Positions 9,361 to 19,137 of a stretch of 64,000 nt of DNA are shown one piece after another. The first letter of the stretch is position 1. Each line of letters begins with the position of its first letter. The DNA is from Longimicrobiales bacterium (GTDB lineage: Bacteria; Gemmatimonadota; Gemmatimonadetes; Longimicrobiales; Gaopeijiaceae). The notes below the pieces were generated by a model, which was not told where the DNA came from, made no database searches, and worked only from the letters and a program-made list of their open reading frames with translations. The stretch is from positions 3,264,001 to 3,328,000 of the forward strand of contig CBDFIQ010000002.1 of NCBI GenBank assembly GCA_965248195.1, given 5' to 3'. A program made the position numbers and the translations under genes.

Positions 9361-10458
9361 ATGGGAGAGGGATTCCTCAGCTCTGAGGAGTACGACGAAC
9401 AGGCTCACCAACTATACAACAGTGGCGATTACGAAGGGGCCCTCGAGATGCTCAAAGAGGGCCTCTCACTTTATCCCAATGCGGTTGAGCTCTGCGTGGG
9501 CATGGGCTACGCCCGCCTCGCGAGGGAGGAGTACGCATGGGCGCGCAAGGCGTTCGACCGTGCGCTCGTTCTCGACCAAGGGCATGAGGACGCCCTTGTC
9601 GGGCTGGGCGAGACTCTTCTCCGCTTCGGTGAGCGCGACGCCGCGCTAGCGCTGTTCGAGCGGGTCGCGGGGTTGGGGTTCGAGGATGACGTGGAATTGA
9701 TGCTCACCATGGGGCGGGCGCTCTATCGTGAAAGCCTCTACGCCGAAAGCCGGGATGTGTTCGCCAAGGCTTCCGCCGCCCGCCCGGAAAGTGCGGAGGT
9801 CGCGGCATCGCTCGGTTACGCACTACATCGGCTGGGCGATGAGGTAGGGGCCGGGCGTCAAATCCGGAGATCTCTCCGCCTCGATCCTGACCTCCATGAG
9901 GCCAGGATCTACCTCGGCCATCTCCTGTACGATCGGGGGGACTGGGAGGGGGCGCTGCGCGAGTTCGAGCGCGTGCCGCCACCCGATCACTGGGACGGAT
10001 TGGCGATTTGGCGTCTCGTGGAGCTCAAACGAGCGCTCTGGCATGTGGAAGACGGGGACGAGCGGGTGGTGCCCTGGCAAAAGCGCCTGGACGAACTCGA
10101 AGCGCTACATGATCCCATCGACCGCCTACTTGCCGAGGTCGAAGCAGAGGTCGACGGCAGTGAGCGATCACTGGTCGACCCGAGTCAGCTTGAACTCTTC
10201 GAGCGGGGTGAACGAAGGGGCGCGACGGAGTCGCACGAGGTCCGGTTGGGAAATGGACATCTGTTCCGCGGAACATGGTACGGTATCGTGCGCCAGATGC
10301 GAGATCAGGCTGGGTTCTCCCATGAAACTCTGTCCCAGTACATGAGACGGCTAGCTGAGCGTTGGCACGAACAGCTTGCCGTGGAGATTCCCTTTGCCGA
10401 TCCCGAGAGCTTTCTCGAGGCCGCCATCCGCGCCGGCGTCGTGTATCTCGAAGACTGA
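9361..10458 (+). CDS. TPR-repeat protein with unassigned C-terminal domain
   Basis: Multiple TPR-like helical repeats; AAGGAG RBS. Confidence 0.85.
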   Translation: MGEGFLSSEEYDEQAHQLYNSGDYEGALEMLKEGLSLYPNAVELCVGMGYARLAREEYAWARKAFDRALVLDQGHEDALVGLGETLLRFGERDAALALFERVAGLGFEDDVELMLTMGRALYRESLYAESRDVFAKASAARPESAEVAASLGYALHRLGDEVGAGRQIRRSLRLDPDLHEARIYLGHLLYDRGDWEGALREFERVPPPDHWDGLAIWRLVELKRALWHVEDGDERVVPWQKRLDELEALHDPIDRLLAEVEAEVDGSERSLVDPSQLELFERGERRGATESHEVRLGNGHLFRGTWYGIVRQMRDQAGFSHETLSQYMRRLAERWHEQLAVEIPFADPESFLEAAIRAGVVYLED

Positions 10459-10466
10459 GACGCACA

Positions 10467-11219
10467 ATGTCACAGTCTGGCGATGTTCTGGAGCGATTCG
10501 TCGAGGCACTCGTACAGCAGATCACCGCTACCCGTCCGGAGTACCTGACTGCTCCCTTTGCGGTTGCGGAAATCTATCAGGACCTCGTTCCGTATCGGTC
10601 CCACCGGAATGCGATCGGGGTCGAAATGAACGGGGATTACGAGGACGCCCTCCTGCGGATGCTCTCCGGCGAGGGCGACTACCTCGTGCTCGACTCCGAG
10701 GTGGCCCTGGGAGAGATGCAGGCGGAGCTCGCCAGGCCGAATCCCAACACGGCTCTGTTCCATGAGTTTGCGGCCGTGGACGTGCGTTTGCATCCCAGCC
10801 GGGTGCCCGTGGGCGCCGGCGACCGACCTAAAGTCCACGCCGAGGTGGAGGCCGATGGGCCGTCGGCCGAACCAGCAGCTTCGAACCCGAGCGAAGCCGA
10901 GCCAGCAAAGCCCTCGAGGCCTGAAGCCGGAGGGTCCGGCGAGGATGGCGTGGTGGGTCACATTGAGACGGCTTCTTCTCCACCTCTGGCGTCGGTAGAG
11001 GCGGCGGCACCCCACGGGCCCGATTCGGCGCATGCCGAATCCGGCGATGTAATGACCGTGTGTCACTGGTGCCGTGAGGATCTTCCGGTGCGAGACTCCA
11101 TTCATTTTTGTCCGTTCTGCGGCAGTGACCTCCGCCCATCCCCGTGTCGCGAGTGTGGCGAAGCGATGGAGGCTCGGTGGCAGTTCTGTGTTTCCTGTGG
11201 GACCGACGTACGTGGTTAG
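10467..11219 (+). CDS. Double zinc-ribbon domain protein
   Basis: CHWC, CPFCG, CRECG, CVSCG at the C-terminus; start taken at MSQS. Confidence 0.75.
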   Translation: MSQSGDVLERFVEALVQQITATRPEYLTAPFAVAEIYQDLVPYRSHRNAIGVEMNGDYEDALLRMLSGEGDYLVLDSEVALGEMQAELARPNPNTALFHEFAAVDVRLHPSRVPVGAGDRPKVHAEVEADGPSAEPAASNPSEAEPAKPSRPEAGGSGEDGVVGHIETASSPPLASVEAAAPHGPDSAHAESGDVMTVCHWCREDLPVRDSIHFCPFCGSDLRPSPCRECGEAMEARWQFCVSCGTDVRG

Positions 11220-12923: not shown

Positions 12924-13801
12924 TGGACATCGAAAAGGTAGGCGTAGTCGGATGCGGGCTCATGGGCAGTGGGATCGCCGAAGTCGCGGCGAAGGCGAGC
13001 TTCGACGTCGTCGTGCGAGAGGTCAGTGATGACCTGATCGAGGCCGGCCGGGTGCGGATCCGGAAATCGCTCGACCGGGCAGTAGAGAGGGGGAAACTCA
13101 CGGTGGCCGACCGTGACGCGGCATGGAGTAGTCTCCGTTTTTCGACGGAGCTCTCGGCTTTGGCTGATCGCCATCTCGTGATCGAGGCAATCGTAGAGGA
13201 AGTCGCGGCGAAGAACGAGCTGTTTTCGGCTCTGGATGAACTTTGTGGGCCCGAGACGATTTTCGCTTCCAACACATCTTCTCTGACGATCACCGATATG
13301 GCGGCGGCGAGCGGACGGCCGGATCGTATGGTCGGCCTCCACTTCTTCAATCCGGTCCCCGTCATGGAGCTGGTGGAGGTCGTGCGCACCATCGCGACGA
13401 GCGACGAAGCGTTCAGCGCGGCGTATTCGTTTGCCGAGACGCTAGGCAAGAAGCCGATTACGGCGAAGGACAACTCTGGCTTCGTGGTGAACTTGCTCCT
13501 GGTGCCCTATATGCTCGACGCCATCCGACAGCTCGAGCGCGGCGTGGCCTCGATGGAGGATATCGATCGGGCGATGACGCTCGGACTGGGGCATCCCATG
13601 GGTCCGTTTACTCTTTGCGACTTCGTCGGGATCGATACGGTCTACCGTATCTCGGAGATCATGTTCGACGAGTATCGAGAGGGCCGATACGCGCCTCCTC
13701 CGCTTCTAAAGCGGATGGTCTCGATGGGGCGGTTCGGCCGGAAGAGGGGAAAAGGGTTCTACGATTGGTCCGGAGAAAAGCCGATTCCCCTGCCGCCCTG
13801 A
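12923..13801 (+). CDS. 3-hydroxybutyryl/3-hydroxyacyl-CoA dehydrogenase
   Basis: GCGLMGSGIA, SNTSSL, GLHFFNPVP, HPMGP; GTG overlaps the thiolase stop. Confidence 0.93.
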   Translation: MDIEKVGVVGCGLMGSGIAEVAAKASFDVVVREVSDDLIEAGRVRIRKSLDRAVERGKLTVADRDAAWSSLRFSTELSALADRHLVIEAIVEEVAAKNELFSALDELCGPETIFASNTSSLTITDMAAASGRPDRMVGLHFFNPVPVMELVEVVRTIATSDEAFSAAYSFAETLGKKPITAKDNSGFVVNLLLVPYMLDAIRQLERGVASMEDIDRAMTLGLGHPMGPFTLCDFVGIDTVYRISEIMFDEYREGRYAPPPLLKRMVSMGRFGRKRGKGFYDWSGEKPIPLPP

Positions 13802-13832
13802 GGGGGGATCATGAATGAAGCTCTTCGGTCCG

Positions 13833-14027
13833 CTAAACCTTGCCGCGGCGCTGGCGCCGCCGTTCGCGCCGAATGGCCGCCTCGCGCTTCCGCTTCCGCT
13901 GGGCGCTGGGCTTCTCGTAGAAGCGACGCTTCCGTAGTTCCGAGTAGAGACCCGACCGCTGCACCTTACGCTTGAAGCGGCGAAGCGCCCGCTCGAGGCT
14001 CTCGTTGTCTTGAATAGTTACTTCCAA
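13833..14027 (-). CDS. rpsU: 30S ribosomal protein S21
   Basis: [13 protein letters not shown]...RRFYEKPS. Confidence 0.97.
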
Positions 14028-14135
14028 AGGACGACAACTCCCTTACTGTGCGATCGAATACTGGTCGATTGAACCCGAATTGACCCGAAAATCCAACCTC
14101 CGACCAAGACTCCAAGGATAGTGGCTACGGCCGAA

Positions 14136-14930
14136 TCAGGGAAGCCTTCGTTCACGGTGGAGGGTGTGCGTGTAGATCACGTACTCCTCCCTGTTGGCGA
14201 GGAAGTCCTCGACCCACACCTCGAACGGTGGCATGGGAATTCGTGCCTCGATGTACTCGATGACGAGCATGCCCAGCTGTAAACGATCCTTGGCGCCGAA
14301 ATCCACTCGTTGGCCCTCCAGAATCGAGTCGACCGCCGCCCCGAAGCTCTCGGGGTCGACGAGGGTGATGAAGTGGCAGACCTGATCGAGCCGGTAGGAC
14401 TGATAGAGAGACCGTAGTTCTGCACTATCCGACTCCCCCTCGGCGTCATCCAGACGCTCCTCGCTGGACGCCGAGAGCTCCCTCGAATTTTCCAGTAGCA
14501 GCTTCTTGAACCACCGGCGGGTCTTGGGAGATTGACGGGCCTCGGCCCCTTGCAACGTGTGCAAGGAGGACGAGAGCAACGCCCTGAAGAGCGGCCGCCC
14601 CAGCCCGCGGGCCTTATGGTCAATCTCCGCCTCGGATGCCTCGATGAATATGTCGGCGGTGCGCACCTCGTCTGATTCCCCGTCGCTGTCCTGCGGGCGG
14701 AACGCGAGATGTCCGTGCCACTGGCCGTCCCGACCGACGAAGGTCACGAGAAAACAGGACCAGGTTTCCTGTTCCCAGTCCAGAAATCCGAGCGATCGCC
14801 TACGGCATCGGTCGATGAGAGCGTGTTCGGTCAAGTCGTCGATCGGGTAGAGGGTACGATACCGAAGTCGGTCTTCAAGACCCCGGGGGAAAATGCGGTC
14901 GTGCCGTGGCGCAGGCAAGCAAAGATCCAA
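14136..14930 (-). CDS. Hypothetical protein, two-domain B-A architecture (see findings)
   Basis: Shares motifs with 16091-16701 and 17392-17740; true start may be downstream (near 14834). Confidence 0.75.
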   Translation of the reverse strand: MDLCLPAPRHDRIFPRGLEDRLRYRTLYPIDDLTEHALIDRCRRRSLGFLDWEQETWSCFLVTFVGRDGQWHGHLAFRPQDSDGESDEVRTADIFIEASEAEIDHKARGLGRPLFRALLSSSLHTLQGAEARQSPKTRRWFKKLLLENSRELSASSEERLDDAEGESDSAELRSLYQSYRLDQVCHFITLVDPESFGAAVDSILEGQRVDFGAKDRLQLGMLVIEYIEARIPMPPFEVWVEDFLANREEYVIYTHTLHRERRLP

Positions 14931-14957
14931 CCCTGGTAGACGGATCCGTCGAGCTTC

Positions 14958-14987
14958 TTGCCAGAACCGTAAACATATTGTTATCGT
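14958..14987 (+). promoter_or_regulatory. Candidate sigma70 promoter
   Basis: TTGCCA-18 bp-TATCGT with extended -10 TG. Confidence 0.45.
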
Positions 14988-15063
14988 GGAGGAATCAGAG
15001 TCTAAGAATTGAGCATTCCCGCATTACAAAGCCTTTTATGGATGTTTGTGATGCAGGAGAGTC

Positions 15064-15086
15064 CCGGCAGGAATGCCGGTTTTTTT
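15064..15086 (+). terminator. Intrinsic terminator in the leader of 15146-16075
   Basis: ccggca-ggaa-tgccgg followed by T7. Confidence 0.6.
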
Positions 15087-15145
15087 GCCTCGATTCTCTC
15101 GGAGGGCCGCTTCAAGGGTCGGCCGATTGAGGCAGAGACCGCCCA

Positions 15146-16075
15146 TTGGAGATGAGGAGACAAATGGAGGGGACGGCTTTCTCGCTTCACTCTACGGCCC
15201 GGCCGGAGGCCATGGCTGACGTTCCCGGCGTCTGTGACCTTCCACTGACCAGGGCTGTGGTCCACTACCGCGATCTTCACGAGGTGGATCCGCCAGGCGG
15301 GCGCATCCAGGACATTGGACTCGCCCTCGTACTCGAGGGCCGTTTTGCTTCATCCGCCGAAGTCCTGGATCTGGGAAGCTCCACGGTGAAGATGTTGGAC
15401 TTGAGTTCGGAGCTGGTGGTTCTCGACTGGGTCTATGAGCCGACGCTGAAGCACGTCAATCGTTTGCTCATGGAGAGGGCCCGGGGAGGCGAGGAGGTGG
15501 ACGCGGCTGGGCGGCTGGGAACCTACTCGTTCCAGATGGCTCTGACCTTGCTTGGCCGCCTCGGATACGGGCCGCTCACGCGCCCCACGATTCTCAGGAT
15601 TGGATTCCGAGACATATGCCGGGACCTGGATTTTCACGAGGGGACCGCGGTCCGGATCGTCCTCGGTGAGCATCGGGTTGCACGCGCGCACCTCGACTAT
15701 GACGCGAACTCCTTGGTGTTCAGTACGCCTTCGCCGGAGCCGGATGCCATCCTCGAAGCCGGCGTGCTCGAAGCGTTCCCTCACAGCGACGTCATGCGTC
15801 TCAGTGAGGCCCACAACGGTGGGTCGGTGCAATACCAGGTCCGTCTTTCGTTCCCCGCGACGTTGGCCGAGGCGCGTGGGGAGCTGCGTTCGATCCGGCG
15901 AGGCCTCGGGGGACTGTTGGCCCGCTTCGAGCCAGAGCGCTTCAAGGGGATCGAGCAGCATCTCACCACCTTCGGATCGCGGGACACACTCTCCCAATTC
16001 CATGTCCGGGAGCGACGGAGGAAGGTCGAGGCGCTACGAACCCGTCATGGGGCCGGCGGCGGCACCGTCCACTAG
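15146..16075 (+). CDS. Hypothetical protein, no recognisable family
   Basis: 309-codon ORF with normal globular composition; start may be ATG 15164 (AGGAG RBS). Confidence 0.7.
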   Translation: MEMRRQMEGTAFSLHSTARPEAMADVPGVCDLPLTRAVVHYRDLHEVDPPGGRIQDIGLALVLEGRFASSAEVLDLGSSTVKMLDLSSELVVLDWVYEPTLKHVNRLLMERARGGEEVDAAGRLGTYSFQMALTLLGRLGYGPLTRPTILRIGFRDICRDLDFHEGTAVRIVLGEHRVARAHLDYDANSLVFSTPSPEPDAILEAGVLEAFPHSDVMRLSEAHNGGSVQYQVRLSFPATLAEARGELRSIRRGLGGLLARFEPERFKGIEQHLTTFGSRDTLSQFHVRERRRKVEALRTRHGAGGGTVH

Positions 16076-16090
16076 CCCCGTGGCTACGCC

Positions 16091-16701
16091 ATGATCGTCA
16101 CTCCTGAATTCGCCGGGCTCGACGGGCGAAAGGCGCCACCTGAGCCGGTGGACCGTACCGTTTCGCCGTCCGATCTGGGGGCGTTGAAGGGACACTACGA
16201 GGAGTATTGCCGGCAGCAGGTAACCCTTCTCCTGGAGATCATCCCGCTGGAGGCGGTGAGGCCGCTTTACCGTCGCACGAGGATTTGGGCGACAGAGCGG
16301 GGGCTTCACGACACCAAGGATCCCATGTCGACCCTACGCGTTTTTTGCCGTGAGGTGCTGCCCCTCCACCATTCGAAGTCTGGCTCTTGCATCATGCAAA
16401 CCATCGCGTGGCCCCTGCGGGTGAGGGGGTGGAATGGACGCCTCTAGCCGAGCCGATGGAGCTGGTCGCGGTCGATGTCAGGCGAATGGAGCATGAGTCG
16501 GAGCCGTGGCAGGGAACGCTCGAGGTGTACCGAGGCGGCGATGCGTGGCGGGGGCTCATTCGATTCCAGCGCGAGGGAGAGGAAGGCCACTTCCGCACCA
16601 GCGAAATTTTTTGTGAAGATGACCTCCAAGACCTTCGAAATCGTTTCAATTCGTTCACTGCGCCTACCATGAGCGCATTTCTGCGCTCGACCCTCCCGTA
16701 A
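16091..16701 (+). pseudogene. Hypothetical protein, A-B architecture, split by a 1-nt frameshift near 16366 (pseudogene or sequencing error)
   Basis: A -1 shift at ctc/cca restores LPLPPFEVW and joins ORFs 16091-16447 and 16387-16701. Confidence 0.75.
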
Positions 16702-16985
16702 ACCGAGTTTTTAGTAAAAAACGATCTCGGCAGGGAGTCAAGATTTTGCGGAATCAGTTCTCGTAAGTTCCCATCAGAGTTGAATTTCGCTCCTCCGAAC
16801 ACACGAACCCCGGGGTCCTTCGAGCGTCGAGGAACAGTTGATTTCGAGCCAAATATCGAATTCATAAGTAATTGCTGTGTAATGACTTACATAATTACGT
16901 TGGGTGCACGACATTTTTGATAACAGGCTTGCGCGCGTCGGAAATGACGTGTATGATGGCTTCGCCTCGACTCTGTTGCTTTTCC

Positions 16986-17016
16986 TTGACACTGTCGAAA
17001 TTCACGATGGTACAGT
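16986..17016 (+). promoter_or_regulatory. Candidate sigma70 promoter overlapped by an inverted repeat
   Basis: TTGACA-19 bp-TACAGT (TGn extended -10). Confidence 0.5.
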
Positions 17017-17076
17017 CGATTCTATCGGATCATTTCGTGAATTTTCGAACCATCAAAATCCGGGAGAATTGTGCCC

Positions 17077-17280
17077 ATGTGGGAGACGCGCTCTGTGGAG
17101 ATTACCGTCCGACTTCCCCATGATATTGCAGAGCAGGCCGAGGAGGTGCAGAAGGCGGATCCGGAATTTTTGAGCCGGGTCGTGCTCTACGGTCTCACTC
17201 GCCGATCTATCTATCAGCAGCTGCGCGAGCGCAGCCGGGACCAAGCTTCCCAGGATCTTCCCGCCCCGCGCGCGATGTAA
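17077..17280 (+). CDS. Small ribbon-helix-helix-like protein
   Basis: VEITVRLP beta-strand followed by two helices; GGGAG RBS. Confidence 0.6.
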   Translation: MWETRSVEITVRLPHDIAEQAEEVQKADPEFLSRVVLYGLTRRSIYQQLRERSRDQASQDLPAPRAM

Positions 17281-17391
17281 GGGGCTTGACTCTTCCGCCG
17301 CACCCCAATAATACCTAAGGGCAAGTAGGGCAGGCACTTGCACGTCGCGGGCCGGCGTGCGGGCACGCCTGTACAGTGCTGGGAGGGACGG

Positions 17392-17740
17392 CATGAGCGA
17401 CGCCCGGCCGGAAAAGCCCCAAAAGCTGAGCCCTGATTTGGCGGAACGCGTGCTCCGGGCAAAGTACTTGGACTACTGTTCCTCTCAAATCGCTGAGCAT
17501 CTGCTCCTGCTTTCGCCGGACGAGATCTACGTCCTTGCTCAGGAGGCGCTCCGTGCGGGCGGCCAGAAGAGCGAACCTTCCCACGAGCAGATGGTGCGAT
17601 TGGCCACCGAGGGTGTCGCTCGACGGCTCACGCTCCCTCCGTTCGAAACGTGGGCTGATGAATACGAACGGGACCCCGCCCGGTATGACGATCAGCTGAT
17701 GGGTCTTTGGAAAAGCGAGTTGGAGGACGTACCTGACTAG
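17392..17740 (+). CDS. Hypothetical protein, stand-alone domain A
   Basis: GGGAGG RBS; LRAKYLDYCSSQI...LPPFETW. Confidence 0.75.
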
Positions 17741-18168
17741 AACGGCAGATCGTCATCCGGTTCGGAGATCGGCGGGCCCGGTGACGGGCTGGGATCGCGC
17801 TGAGCGCCTTCGCCGCGGCCACCTCCACCTCCACCGGCGGTGGACCCGAGCATGACCATCTCTGTGACGATGACATCGGTCCAATACCTTTTCTGGCCGT
17901 CCCTTTCGGATTCGGAGTACTCGATACGCCCCTCGACGTAGAGCCGGTCACCCTTCTTTACCCATTGATCGACGATTTCGACGAGGCGACCGAAGAAAGT
18001 CAGACGGTGCCACTCGGTCTTCTCCCTCTGCTGCCCGGAGCCGTCGTTCCACTTGCGGTTGGTGGCCAGGGACACCTTCGCAACTTGGGTGCCCGAAGAG
18101 GTGGCTCGGACGTCAGGGTCGTTTCCCACGTTTCCGATGAGCATGACCTTGTTGAGGGACCGGCTCAT
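17737..18168 (-). CDS. ssb: Single-stranded DNA-binding protein
   Basis: SLNKVMLIGN, EKTEWHR, KG...YVEGR, C-terminal DDDLPF. Confidence 0.97.
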   Translation of the reverse strand: MSRSLNKVMLIGNVGNDPDVRATSSGTQVAKVSLATNRKWNDGSGQQREKTEWHRLTFFGRLVEIVDQWVKKGDRLYVEGRIEYSESERDGQKRYWTDVIVTEMVMLGSTAGGGGGGRGEGAQRDPSPSPGPPISEPDDDLPF

Positions 18169-18351
18169 TATCGTGCACTCCTTGGAGATCGACGCGGGCT
18201 CACGCGCCATTTGGGCCGTGCGGCGCCACAAGGTACCAAGGGCTCCGAGCGGGCGCTATGGGCGGGTGGCGCCCCCTGATCGGCCCTCCTAGCTTTTGCC
18301 TGATGGGCCCCACCCAGGTGCCCTCCTACGCCGGATCTCGCCGAGCCTGCC

Positions 18352-19137
18352 ATGAGTGATCTTCAGTACATTCGAGTGGAGTGGGAGGGGGAGCTGGCCA
18401 TTGTCGTGATCGACCGCGCCGATAAGCTCAACGCCCTGAATGCGGAGGTAGTTCAAGAGCTCGGGGACGTGTTCCGCGACCTCAAGGACGACGACGATGT
18501 CCTGGGAGTGATCCTGACGGGGGCGGGTGAGAAGGCCTTTGTCGCCGGAGCGGACATTGGCGAGCTCGCTCAGCTCACACCGCTCACCGGCGTGAAGGTC
18601 AGCCGGGAGGGGCAGAGGATCTTTGCCGAGATTGAGCGCTTTCCAAAGCCCGTGCTAGCTGCAGTTGGAGGGTACGCATTGGGTGGCGGATGCGAGCTCG
18701 CTCTCGCGTGCCACCTCCGGGTCGCCAGCGAAAATGCCCGCTTTGGGCTTCCCGAGGTGGGGCTCGGCACGATACCCGGCTACGGCGGAACGATGAGGCT
18801 CGCCAGGGTCGTCGGGTTCGGTCATGCCATAGAGATGGTCCTGACCGGCCGGATGGTCGACGCGGAGAGGGCCGAACGGATGGGCCTGGTGAGCGCCGTC
18901 TATCCCCAGGAGGCGCTCCTCGACCAGGCGAAGGTGTTCATTCGGGGAATTACGAAGAATGGCCCGGTCGCCGTTCGCATGGCATTGGAGTCCATTTATT
19001 TGGCCCAAAGCTCGGCACCGGCGGACGCCGCGAGCTTCGAATCCGCAATGTTCGGATTACTCGCTTCCACCACCGATATGAAGGAAGGAATGACGGCCTT
19101 TCTCGAGAAGCGAAAGGCTGCCTTCAAGGGCGAATAG
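18352..19137 (+). CDS. Enoyl-CoA hydratase/crotonase
   Basis: KAFVAGADI, GYALGGGCELAL, GLPEV.LG.IPGYGGT. Confidence 0.93.
   Translation: MSDLQYIRVEWEGELAIVVIDRADKLNALNAEVVQELGDVFRDLKDDDDVLGVILTGAGEKAFVAGADIGELAQLTPLTGVKVSREGQRIFAEIERFPKPVLAAVGGYALGGGCELALACHLRVASENARFGLPEVGLGTIPGYGGTMRLARVVGFGHAIEMVLTGRMVDAERAERMGLVSAVYPQEALLDQAKVFIRGITKNGPVAVRMALESIYLAQSSAPADAASFESAMFGLLASTTDMKEGMTAFLEKRKAAFKGE

Follow-up and report, generated by a model that had tools for sequence, protein, structure and literature searches.

Why two protein domains should be joined in both possible orders in neighbouring genes, and what their products may do, is the question raised by a locus in the window analysed here (the whole stretch of DNA examined, 64,000 bp), which is part of the 4.86-Mb, two-contig genome of a marine Gemmatimonadota bacterium. 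The sequencing runs with near-identical DNA include sediment metagenomes. The locus is a cassette located between rpsU and ssb, with the gene order B-A (minus strand), C, A-B, a 67-amino acid (aa) gene resembling ribbon-helix-helix (RHH) regulators, and lone A (all plus strand), then ssb on the minus strand, oriented toward the cassette; A and B denote the two domains. The initial annotation recorded the three A/B genes and overlooked the conserved gene C (15164-16075) and the RHH-like gene (17077-17280). The reading that we favour, with a confidence just short of even, is that of a Gemmatimonadetes-specific cassette in which shuffled orphan domains are arranged around a predicted RHH regulator that the A proteins may tune.

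The B domains of B-A and A-B (frame 16387-16698) were aligned by BLASTP with 21 of 74 residues identical (28%) and an expectation (E) value of 2e-6, and the alignment score was reached by none of 2000 shuffles. Among the 3227 called proteins of the genome shorter than 400 aa, B-A was the best non-self match of both B and lone A. When family alignments (53 B-A, 45 A-B, and 16 lone A sequences) were compared using hhalign, the probability was 97.9 (E 3.9e-13) for the two B domains and 97.3-98.7 for the three A-A pairs, and all six unlike-domain pairs were below 2. Domain A is common to B-A, A-B, and the lone A gene (17393-17740). These values bear out the earlier claims that the N-terminal half of the protein at 14136 matches the C-terminal half of 16091-16701, and that B-A, A-B, and A alone occur at one locus. 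The gene ends required correction: the most likely start of B-A is TTG 14834, giving a protein of 232 aa as in many homologues, and not 14930, and lone A starts at ATG 17393, not at 17392.

The AlphaFold2 model of an intact A-B orthologue from locus L001 (predicted local distance difference test, pLDDT, 87; predicted template modelling score, pTM, 0.67) comprises five helices in A and three long strands, two short strands, and two helices in B. The B-A model (pLDDT 64, pTM 0.42) has the same elements with the domain order reversed and a low-confidence linker. The element order of B is the same in both models, so the objection that the two B segments might differ in fold does not hold. The mean net charge is about -7 for lone A and for A of B-A; the B domains average neutral to acidic (-0.4 to -4.2) and contain conserved aromatic residues. 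No match was found for A, B, or C in Pfam, NCBIfam, PHROGs, or PDB sequences, or for lone A and C in ESM Atlas. Fold searches with both models gave nothing significant in PDB Foldseek or a viral library, and the best Z scores of the wide VIA-align searches, 5.7 and 5.5, were not significant; A was hardly probed by these searches because B filled the match lists and the domains were folded only in fusions. The complex predicted for lone A and lone B of family f7 (score 0.01, mark 0.32) counts neither for nor against an interaction.

Of 301 genomes drawn across the phylum, 271 gave a match to the A profile (among them G193, which no other result uses) and 203 to the B profile, and neither profile matched any of 19 genomes of families f10-f12 or three of f9. 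In the loci examined, lone A was located 3' of the 67-aa gene in f1, f2, f3, f6, and f7, the B-A form was found in f1 and f3, and the A-B form was found only in f1, behind C in intact loci. Lone A was followed by a separate lone B in 20 of 23 f7 loci. In eight f4 and f5 genomes, A was fused to a TehB-like methyltransferase-type domain (NCBIfam E 8e-6, below the cut-off); a stand-alone A of this clade was found in L108. C matched 32 of the 121 genomes of the order. Word-based searches reaching outside the phylum gave few taxon-named matches, all of them Gemmatimonadota. A and B are real conserved domains under purifying selection, which have been recombined as A, B, A-B, B-A, and A-methyltransferase-like proteins.

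Among the 32 fusion-bearing genomes surveyed (the rearranged genome G290 was excluded), 11 carry both fusions, 14 only A-B, and 7 only B-A; B-A, A-B, and lone A are all present in 10 surveyed genomes. True absence at the site was confirmed by contiguous loci (e.g., L034, L099, L104, L038, and L098). The domain trees (77 B and 98 A domains, excluding near-duplicate and broken loci) placed every architecture in its own group and left the deep forks open. The A-B group was starred in both trees, and B-A was starred in the B tree and had 70/88 in the A tree; identity between the long-branched architecture clades is about 20-30%. A single origin of both fused B domains gave a p value of 0.274 in the approximately unbiased (AU) test, and the trees fit one permutation or two independent fusions. 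That the order of the domains is permuted within one locus is a real feature and an old one. Permutation of domain order by independent fusion or by circular permutation is a general phenomenon, and the present case resembles it in having two domains in both orders; it differs in that both orders and a single-domain paralogue stand at one locus and both domains are orphans. A literature search on domain-order reversal found nothing relevant.

Lone B loci were of several kinds: lone B stood directly before an AbrB/MazE-like gene in four of nine, before a stand-alone HisKA gene in five loci, and near glutamine synthetase in four. The placing of lone B ahead of such tiny regulators speaks for the favoured reading. 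At C1:676776-677355 (L054:4277-4856), a lone B at C1:676836 precedes a conserved 63-aa AbrB/MazE-like gene beside luxC/luxE-like genes, and this gene pair is found again in f1 and f3. Stand-alone 61-69-aa HisKA (DHp) proteins are encoded near rho in f4 and f8 (L055, L056, L057, L060, L067, and L071), usually right after lone B. A conserved 55-aa gene (EPIGIIL...WAYxW type) is located 3' of the A-methyltransferase-like gene in f4 and f5 (L053, L055, L056, L057, and L049). Small B-looking neighbours in L062 and L064 were discarded, as the B profile gave no match.

The part of the cassette that is kept most constantly is the RHH-like gene with lone A. The 67-aa protein has a strand-helix-helix pattern with alternating residues in the N-terminal strand (alignment of 32 rows); 8 of 32 members matched YlcI/YnfO below the cut-off (E 0.0023-0.0056), and one orthologue was automatically named an RHH CopG-domain protein in UniRef. 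In this pattern, in the weak match, and in the name it resembles the RHH regulators Arc, MetJ, CopG, and AmrZ, whereas it reaches no family cut-off and has a fixed partner, A, of no known family. The usual RHH turn contains Gly, in contrast to the turn DPE(F/Y)L of the 67-aa protein. A strong match to the RHH-like gene was found in 75 of 301 genomes (f1 45/47, f3 5/6, f2 1/4, f6 1/1, f7 22/23, and the present genome) and in none of the 197 genomes of f4, f5, and f8, which gave three weak matches (E 0.005-0.008); the eight A copies examined in these last families are fused to the methyltransferase-like domain. In 70 of the 75 genomes, the RHH-like gene is less than 1 kb from lone A; in G297 it lies at a contig edge. 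The adjacency is kept in five families, even where the flanks change (f2, f6, and f7). Both genes were not found in G016, G197, and G287 (single contigs, 93-100% complete) or in G030. Lone A is the most widely kept member and is present in many genomes without either fusion. The RHH-like gene and lone A form a fixed core, to which B-A, C, and A-B are optional additions.

The A-B gene is itself broken in the window. The initial annotation took 16091-16701 as an A-B gene, which is right for relatives (L001 and L002 have one open A-B frame of about 200 aa) and not for the present DNA, where the A and B halves lie in different frames because one base is missing after 16365 relative to the relatives. 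Among 11 genomes of the same genus, eight matched, six of them intact and two frameshifted, and 107 of 120 homologues among the matches listed are 180-212 aa long. The 54 metagenomic loci spanning the upstream region, drawn from 80 found with the 67-aa gene and including several near-copies of each other, comprised 39 with A-B fused, 6 broken, 8 absent, and 1 phage locus. Orthologues of 16091 and 16387 are thus normally fused, and the objection that they are separate genes falls away. B-A was intact in 26 of the 27 metagenomic host loci where it is present.

The depth of the extra base in four sequencing runs was 22.8/22.8 in X7, 10.4/23.5 in X6, 4.3/19.8 in X1 (the best holder), and 0/5 in X5; bridging of the 16365 site by the remaining contigs in these runs was unchecked. 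The assembly is not error-rich: 6 of 254 orthologous genes were flagged, of which two are the A-B pieces, one is a miscalled start, and three are other genes. Over ten loci, the ratio of nonsynonymous to synonymous substitution rates (dN/dS) was highest in the cassette for A-B (0.21 and 0.17), compared with 0.08-0.12 for B-A, C, and lone A, 0.043 for the RHH-like gene, and 0.097 for ssb; the values of the A and B domains ranged over 0.08-0.21. Because few genes were flagged and the A-B ratio is highest, a real loss of A-B at the strain level is somewhat more probable than an assembly error. Within the cassette, A-B is the gene most easily dispensed with.

A second copy of the RHH-like gene, with 86% nucleotide identity over 130 bp, was found at C2:536794-537087 in the early leftward operon of a prophage (C2 ~530800-571000; L197-L199), which contains integrase, RecE/RecT, a topoisomerase-family gene, a CI-like repressor, terminase, portal, and capsid genes and is interrupted by insertion sequence (IS) elements. 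This copy is without the host promoter. IMG/VR yielded four loci of three distinct phages (L113, L114/L115, and L116), with copies about 66-87% identical to the host protein; L116 has only the second-helix part, fused to another protein. L158 repeats L113, and L145 looks phage-like by its small genes. The RHH-like gene gave no match in INPHARED, no B-A was found in viral contigs, and a weak viral A candidate (L112) was not confirmed by the profile. The prophage and at least three other phages carry the RHH-like gene alone, without A or B nearby. Phages reportedly encode sigma factors. A similar case, according to the available text of its description, is the RHH protein Gp53, encoded by a Pseudomonas phage, which resembles the host global regulator AmrZ, shares targets with it, and represses host genes (PMC13650114); the likeness lies in phages carrying a copy of a host RHH-like gene.

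Four elements were found at fixed distances upstream of the RHH-like gene in 129 loci: a T5/A5 run (74 loci, mostly near -369), GGAACAnnTGRTT near -245 (89 loci), the palindrome TAAGTnnTTG-n5-CAAnGACTTA near -212 (59 loci), and a sigma-70-type promoter near -149 (118 loci, loose pattern). The AACA-type motif was also found upstream of C in 46 of 72 loci, within the promoter spacer where aligned, and its presence upstream of both C and the RHH-like gene would tie the add-on genes to the core by regulation. The 25-bp palindrome has about a dozen sites in this genome, and 21 of its 22 strand matches are intergenic. It resembles, as we take it, two inverted IHF-type sites, and it presumably also stands upstream of mraZ-, pilin-, and Hsp20-like genes. 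The palindrome is present across the class. Genome-wide counts of RAACANNTGRTT were uninformative. An SOS-box or LexA regulon for the GGAACA motif was rejected, since the motif occurred in 4 of 30 upstream regions of the LexA-like gene at unrelated positions. A second, divergent LexA-like protein is encoded at C2:1324487-1325137 (L221) and is conserved in 54 of 61 genomes of the order; it was not found in G016 and G197 (which are without the RHH-like gene and lone A), G153 and G169 (where the module is diverged or split), and three f2/f3 genomes. The coordinates of the cassette are given in Table 1.

Table 1. Features of the cassette and its control regions (positions in the window).
Feature	Position	Strand	Remarks
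B-A gene	14136..14834	-	232 aa from TTG 14834; B ~14553-14810, A ~14148-14426
Gene C promoter, sigma-70-type TTGCCA-18-TATCGT	14958..14987	+	Conserved; putative function
AACA-nn-TGRTT-type motif in spacer of gene C promoter	14969-14985	+	Conserved motif
Gene C	15164..16075	+	303 aa, conserved orphan family; directly 5' of A-B in intact loci examined
A-B gene	16091..16701	+	~200 aa in relatives, split here; A ~16160-16440, B 16462-16698
Control region of RHH-like gene	16708..16957	+	Conserved; putative sites
T5/A5 element	16708-16720	+	In control region of RHH-like gene
GGAACAnnTGRTT	16831-16843	+	In control region of RHH-like gene
25-bp palindrome	16865-16889		In control region of RHH-like gene
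Sigma-70-type promoter TTGCGC-17-TATGAT	16929-16957	+	Upstream of RHH-like gene
RHH-like gene, predicted transcription regulator	17077..17280	+	67 aa; second copy in prophage of same genome
Lone A gene	17393..17740	+	115 aa, ATG 17393; acidic helical domain, 3' of RHH-like gene

Beyond ssb lie an enoyl-CoA hydratase gene, recF, dciA, and gyrB (rpsU, ssb, and dciA were named by Pfam; the enoyl-CoA hydratase gene, recF, and gyrB were recognised from sequence). The gap between the RHH-like and lone A genes is 112 bp. No Rfam family was found in 13500-18500. The gene C proteins often end in -VH or -IH, and their C-terminal half has a helix/strand pattern that, we presume, recalls YbjN or type III chaperone folds. 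An uncharacterised double-zinc-ribbon protein (10362-11219) and a TPR protein (9361-10458) are encoded upstream of a thiolase gene.

In the mechanism that we propose, the RHH-like protein would bind DNA as a dimer and act as a regulator of wide reach, and the acidic lone A would bind this protein, or its complex with DNA, as a co- or anti-regulator; the acidity of A fits a protein partner better than a DNA binder. The fusions would carry the same A surface together with B, a small beta-meander adaptor, and may either connect additional inputs to the regulator or act as competitors of lone A. Being made with neither A nor the host promoter, a phage copy would out-titrate the control by A. Domain order would matter little in such a scheme, so both orders could survive and either could be lost.

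Several observations weigh against this proposal. The identity of the RHH-like protein is suggested by its pattern, a sub-threshold YlcI/YnfO match, and an automatic name, and the PDB profile search with its family gave no RHH match. The RHH-like gene and lone A are separated by rearrangement in G125, G169, G224, and G277, and their partnership is argued from gene linkage rather than from physical contact. In most genomes of the class (f4, f5, and f8), A and in many cases also B are present although the RHH-like gene is missing, so A has a role independent of it. Family f5 keeps A in 67 of 69 genomes, with B found in only 7 of 69; since f5 is mostly without B, the partnership of A and B is not obligate. 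No operator could be assigned to the RHH-like protein, and the upstream motifs are candidates: the short motif showed no genome-wide contrast, and the palindrome, which occurs in 5 of 5 f4/f5 genomes that lack the gene, is probably bound by a general factor.

Of the other explanations, the most durable, although unlikely, is that the genes are relics of local duplication, in which an ancestral pair of A and B genes underwent duplication and two fusions beside rpsU-ssb and the products are independent, with no joint function with the RHH-like protein. The long-branched, separate clades of the architectures agree with it, as do the independent losses of the genes and the four genomes where the RHH-like gene and A are apart. 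It does not fit the joint absence of the RHH-like gene and lone A from three single-contig genomes, their adjacency across five families even with changed flanks, or the upstream motif common to C and the RHH-like gene.

The mechanism put forward in the initial annotation, that A binds B, with A-B and B-A forming heterodimers or head-to-tail chains and lone A acting as a cap or antagonist, is somewhat less probable still. Their fusion twice in opposite orders and the adjacent separate genes in f7 would fit a functional link between A and B, the pTM of the A-B model may mean a defined A-to-B arrangement, and the three genes do coexist in ten genomes; an obligate partnership, however, is contradicted by f5, which mostly lacks B yet keeps A. 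Two thirds of the fusion genomes (21 of 32) have only one fusion, so the model cannot hold as an obligate mechanism. Of 53 metagenomic host loci, 14 have a broken A-B gene or none, while B-A is nearly always intact where present, and the low pTM and low-confidence linker of the B-A model also speak against this mechanism. Nor is lone A an accessory cap: no other member is kept so widely, it is tied to the RHH-like gene, and many genomes have it without either fusion.

It is improbable that B is a nucleic-acid-binding beta-meander and that the cassette serves the replication or repair of DNA next to ssb, recF, dciA, and gyrB. B shares an antiparallel meander followed by a helix with PC4, Pur-alpha, and WGR domains. 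In favour of this reading, Foldseek weakly matched Borrelia Pur-alpha and PC4 homologues (E 0.4-0.9), WGR domains had a Z score of 4.2, B has the conserved aromatics, and the A profile gave a weak match to DnaA domain I (E 0.07). All these matches fall short of significance (the highest Z to any chain was 5.7), the B profile has no PDB sequence match, B has no basic surface by net charge, and the A profile does not match the genome's own DnaA. In addition, ssb faces the cassette, and no link to ssb is seen in the loci examined in f2, f6, and f7. An oriC at the locus was rejected, as dnaA is on the other contig (C1:800644). A 682-aa frame with two DnaA-type AAA matches was noted at C2:1101121-1102662, and the 9-mer TTTTACACA accounts for most of the first 40 entries in a list of 287 DnaA-box-like matches genome-wide.

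The A-B protein was also compared with prokaryotic COMMD-like proteins, which, in the available part of their description, have a six-helix HN domain followed by a COMM domain with three strands and one extended helix; both have a helical N-terminal domain and a C-terminal sheet-and-helix domain in about 200 aa (PMC13392464). The A-B model has five helices, then five strands and two short helices, and B, unlike its COMMD counterpart, also occurs N-terminally or alone. COMMD chains were the top Foldseek rows for the A-B model without being significant (E 0.09-0.4, template modelling score, TM, 0.13-0.16); they were absent among the best 50 VIA-align rows, and there was no Pfam match. The supplementary list of that paper might bear on whether A-B is present there as COMMD (PMC13392464). 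The resemblances to COMMD, PC4/Pur, SAS-6, and DnaA domain I were left unassigned.

Type II toxin-antitoxin systems are patchy, mobile, and often multi-copy, and a toxin-antitoxin or defence pair of the RHH-like protein and lone A, with the phage gene as a counter-defence antitoxin, is very improbable despite the small RHH gene 5' of a partner of about 110 aa, the joint loss, and the lone phage copies, because the pair is single-copy, syntenic, and near-universal in f1 (45/47), f3 (5/6), f6 (1/1), and f7 (22/23), A matches no toxin family in Pfam, NCBIfam, or PHROGs, the genes are 112 bp apart, and most of the class has A without the RHH-like gene.

No description of these genes was found in the literature on Gemmatimonadota signature proteins, Longimicrobiales RHH proteins, or gemmatimonad LexA boxes. 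In the available text of a paper on Longimicrobiales, RHH appears only in a reference title (PMC11596202), and the accessible part of the Gaopeijia description, which reports division by binary fission, does not contain the terms ribbon-helix or prophage (PMC11651109).

The cassette exemplifies a type of event already known, the shuffling of domains around a small regulator, in which the feature is real, the families are orphan, and the mechanism is a proposal. In a wider form, which we consider doubtful as a whole, the RHH-like protein would be an undescribed master regulator of Longimicrobiales and the two related families of the class that have it, f6 and f7, controlled by acidic A-domain partners plugged into differing inputs (B in both orders and the methyltransferase-like domain) and repeatedly captured without its partners by temperate and other phages to reprogramme the host; A and B would then be two new interaction folds marking the class Gemmatimonadetes. 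Gemmatimonadota are widespread and barely cultured. From this phylum, the locus yields two orphan domains found across the class, of which one has a confidently predicted model that clearly matches no known structure. It also serves as a natural experiment on the order of domains and provides a candidate global regulator that stands out because phages have captured it repeatedly. Since the cultured marine Gaopeijia maritima encodes the RHH-like protein of a locus with the full cassette in identical form, the proposed model may be tested at the bench.

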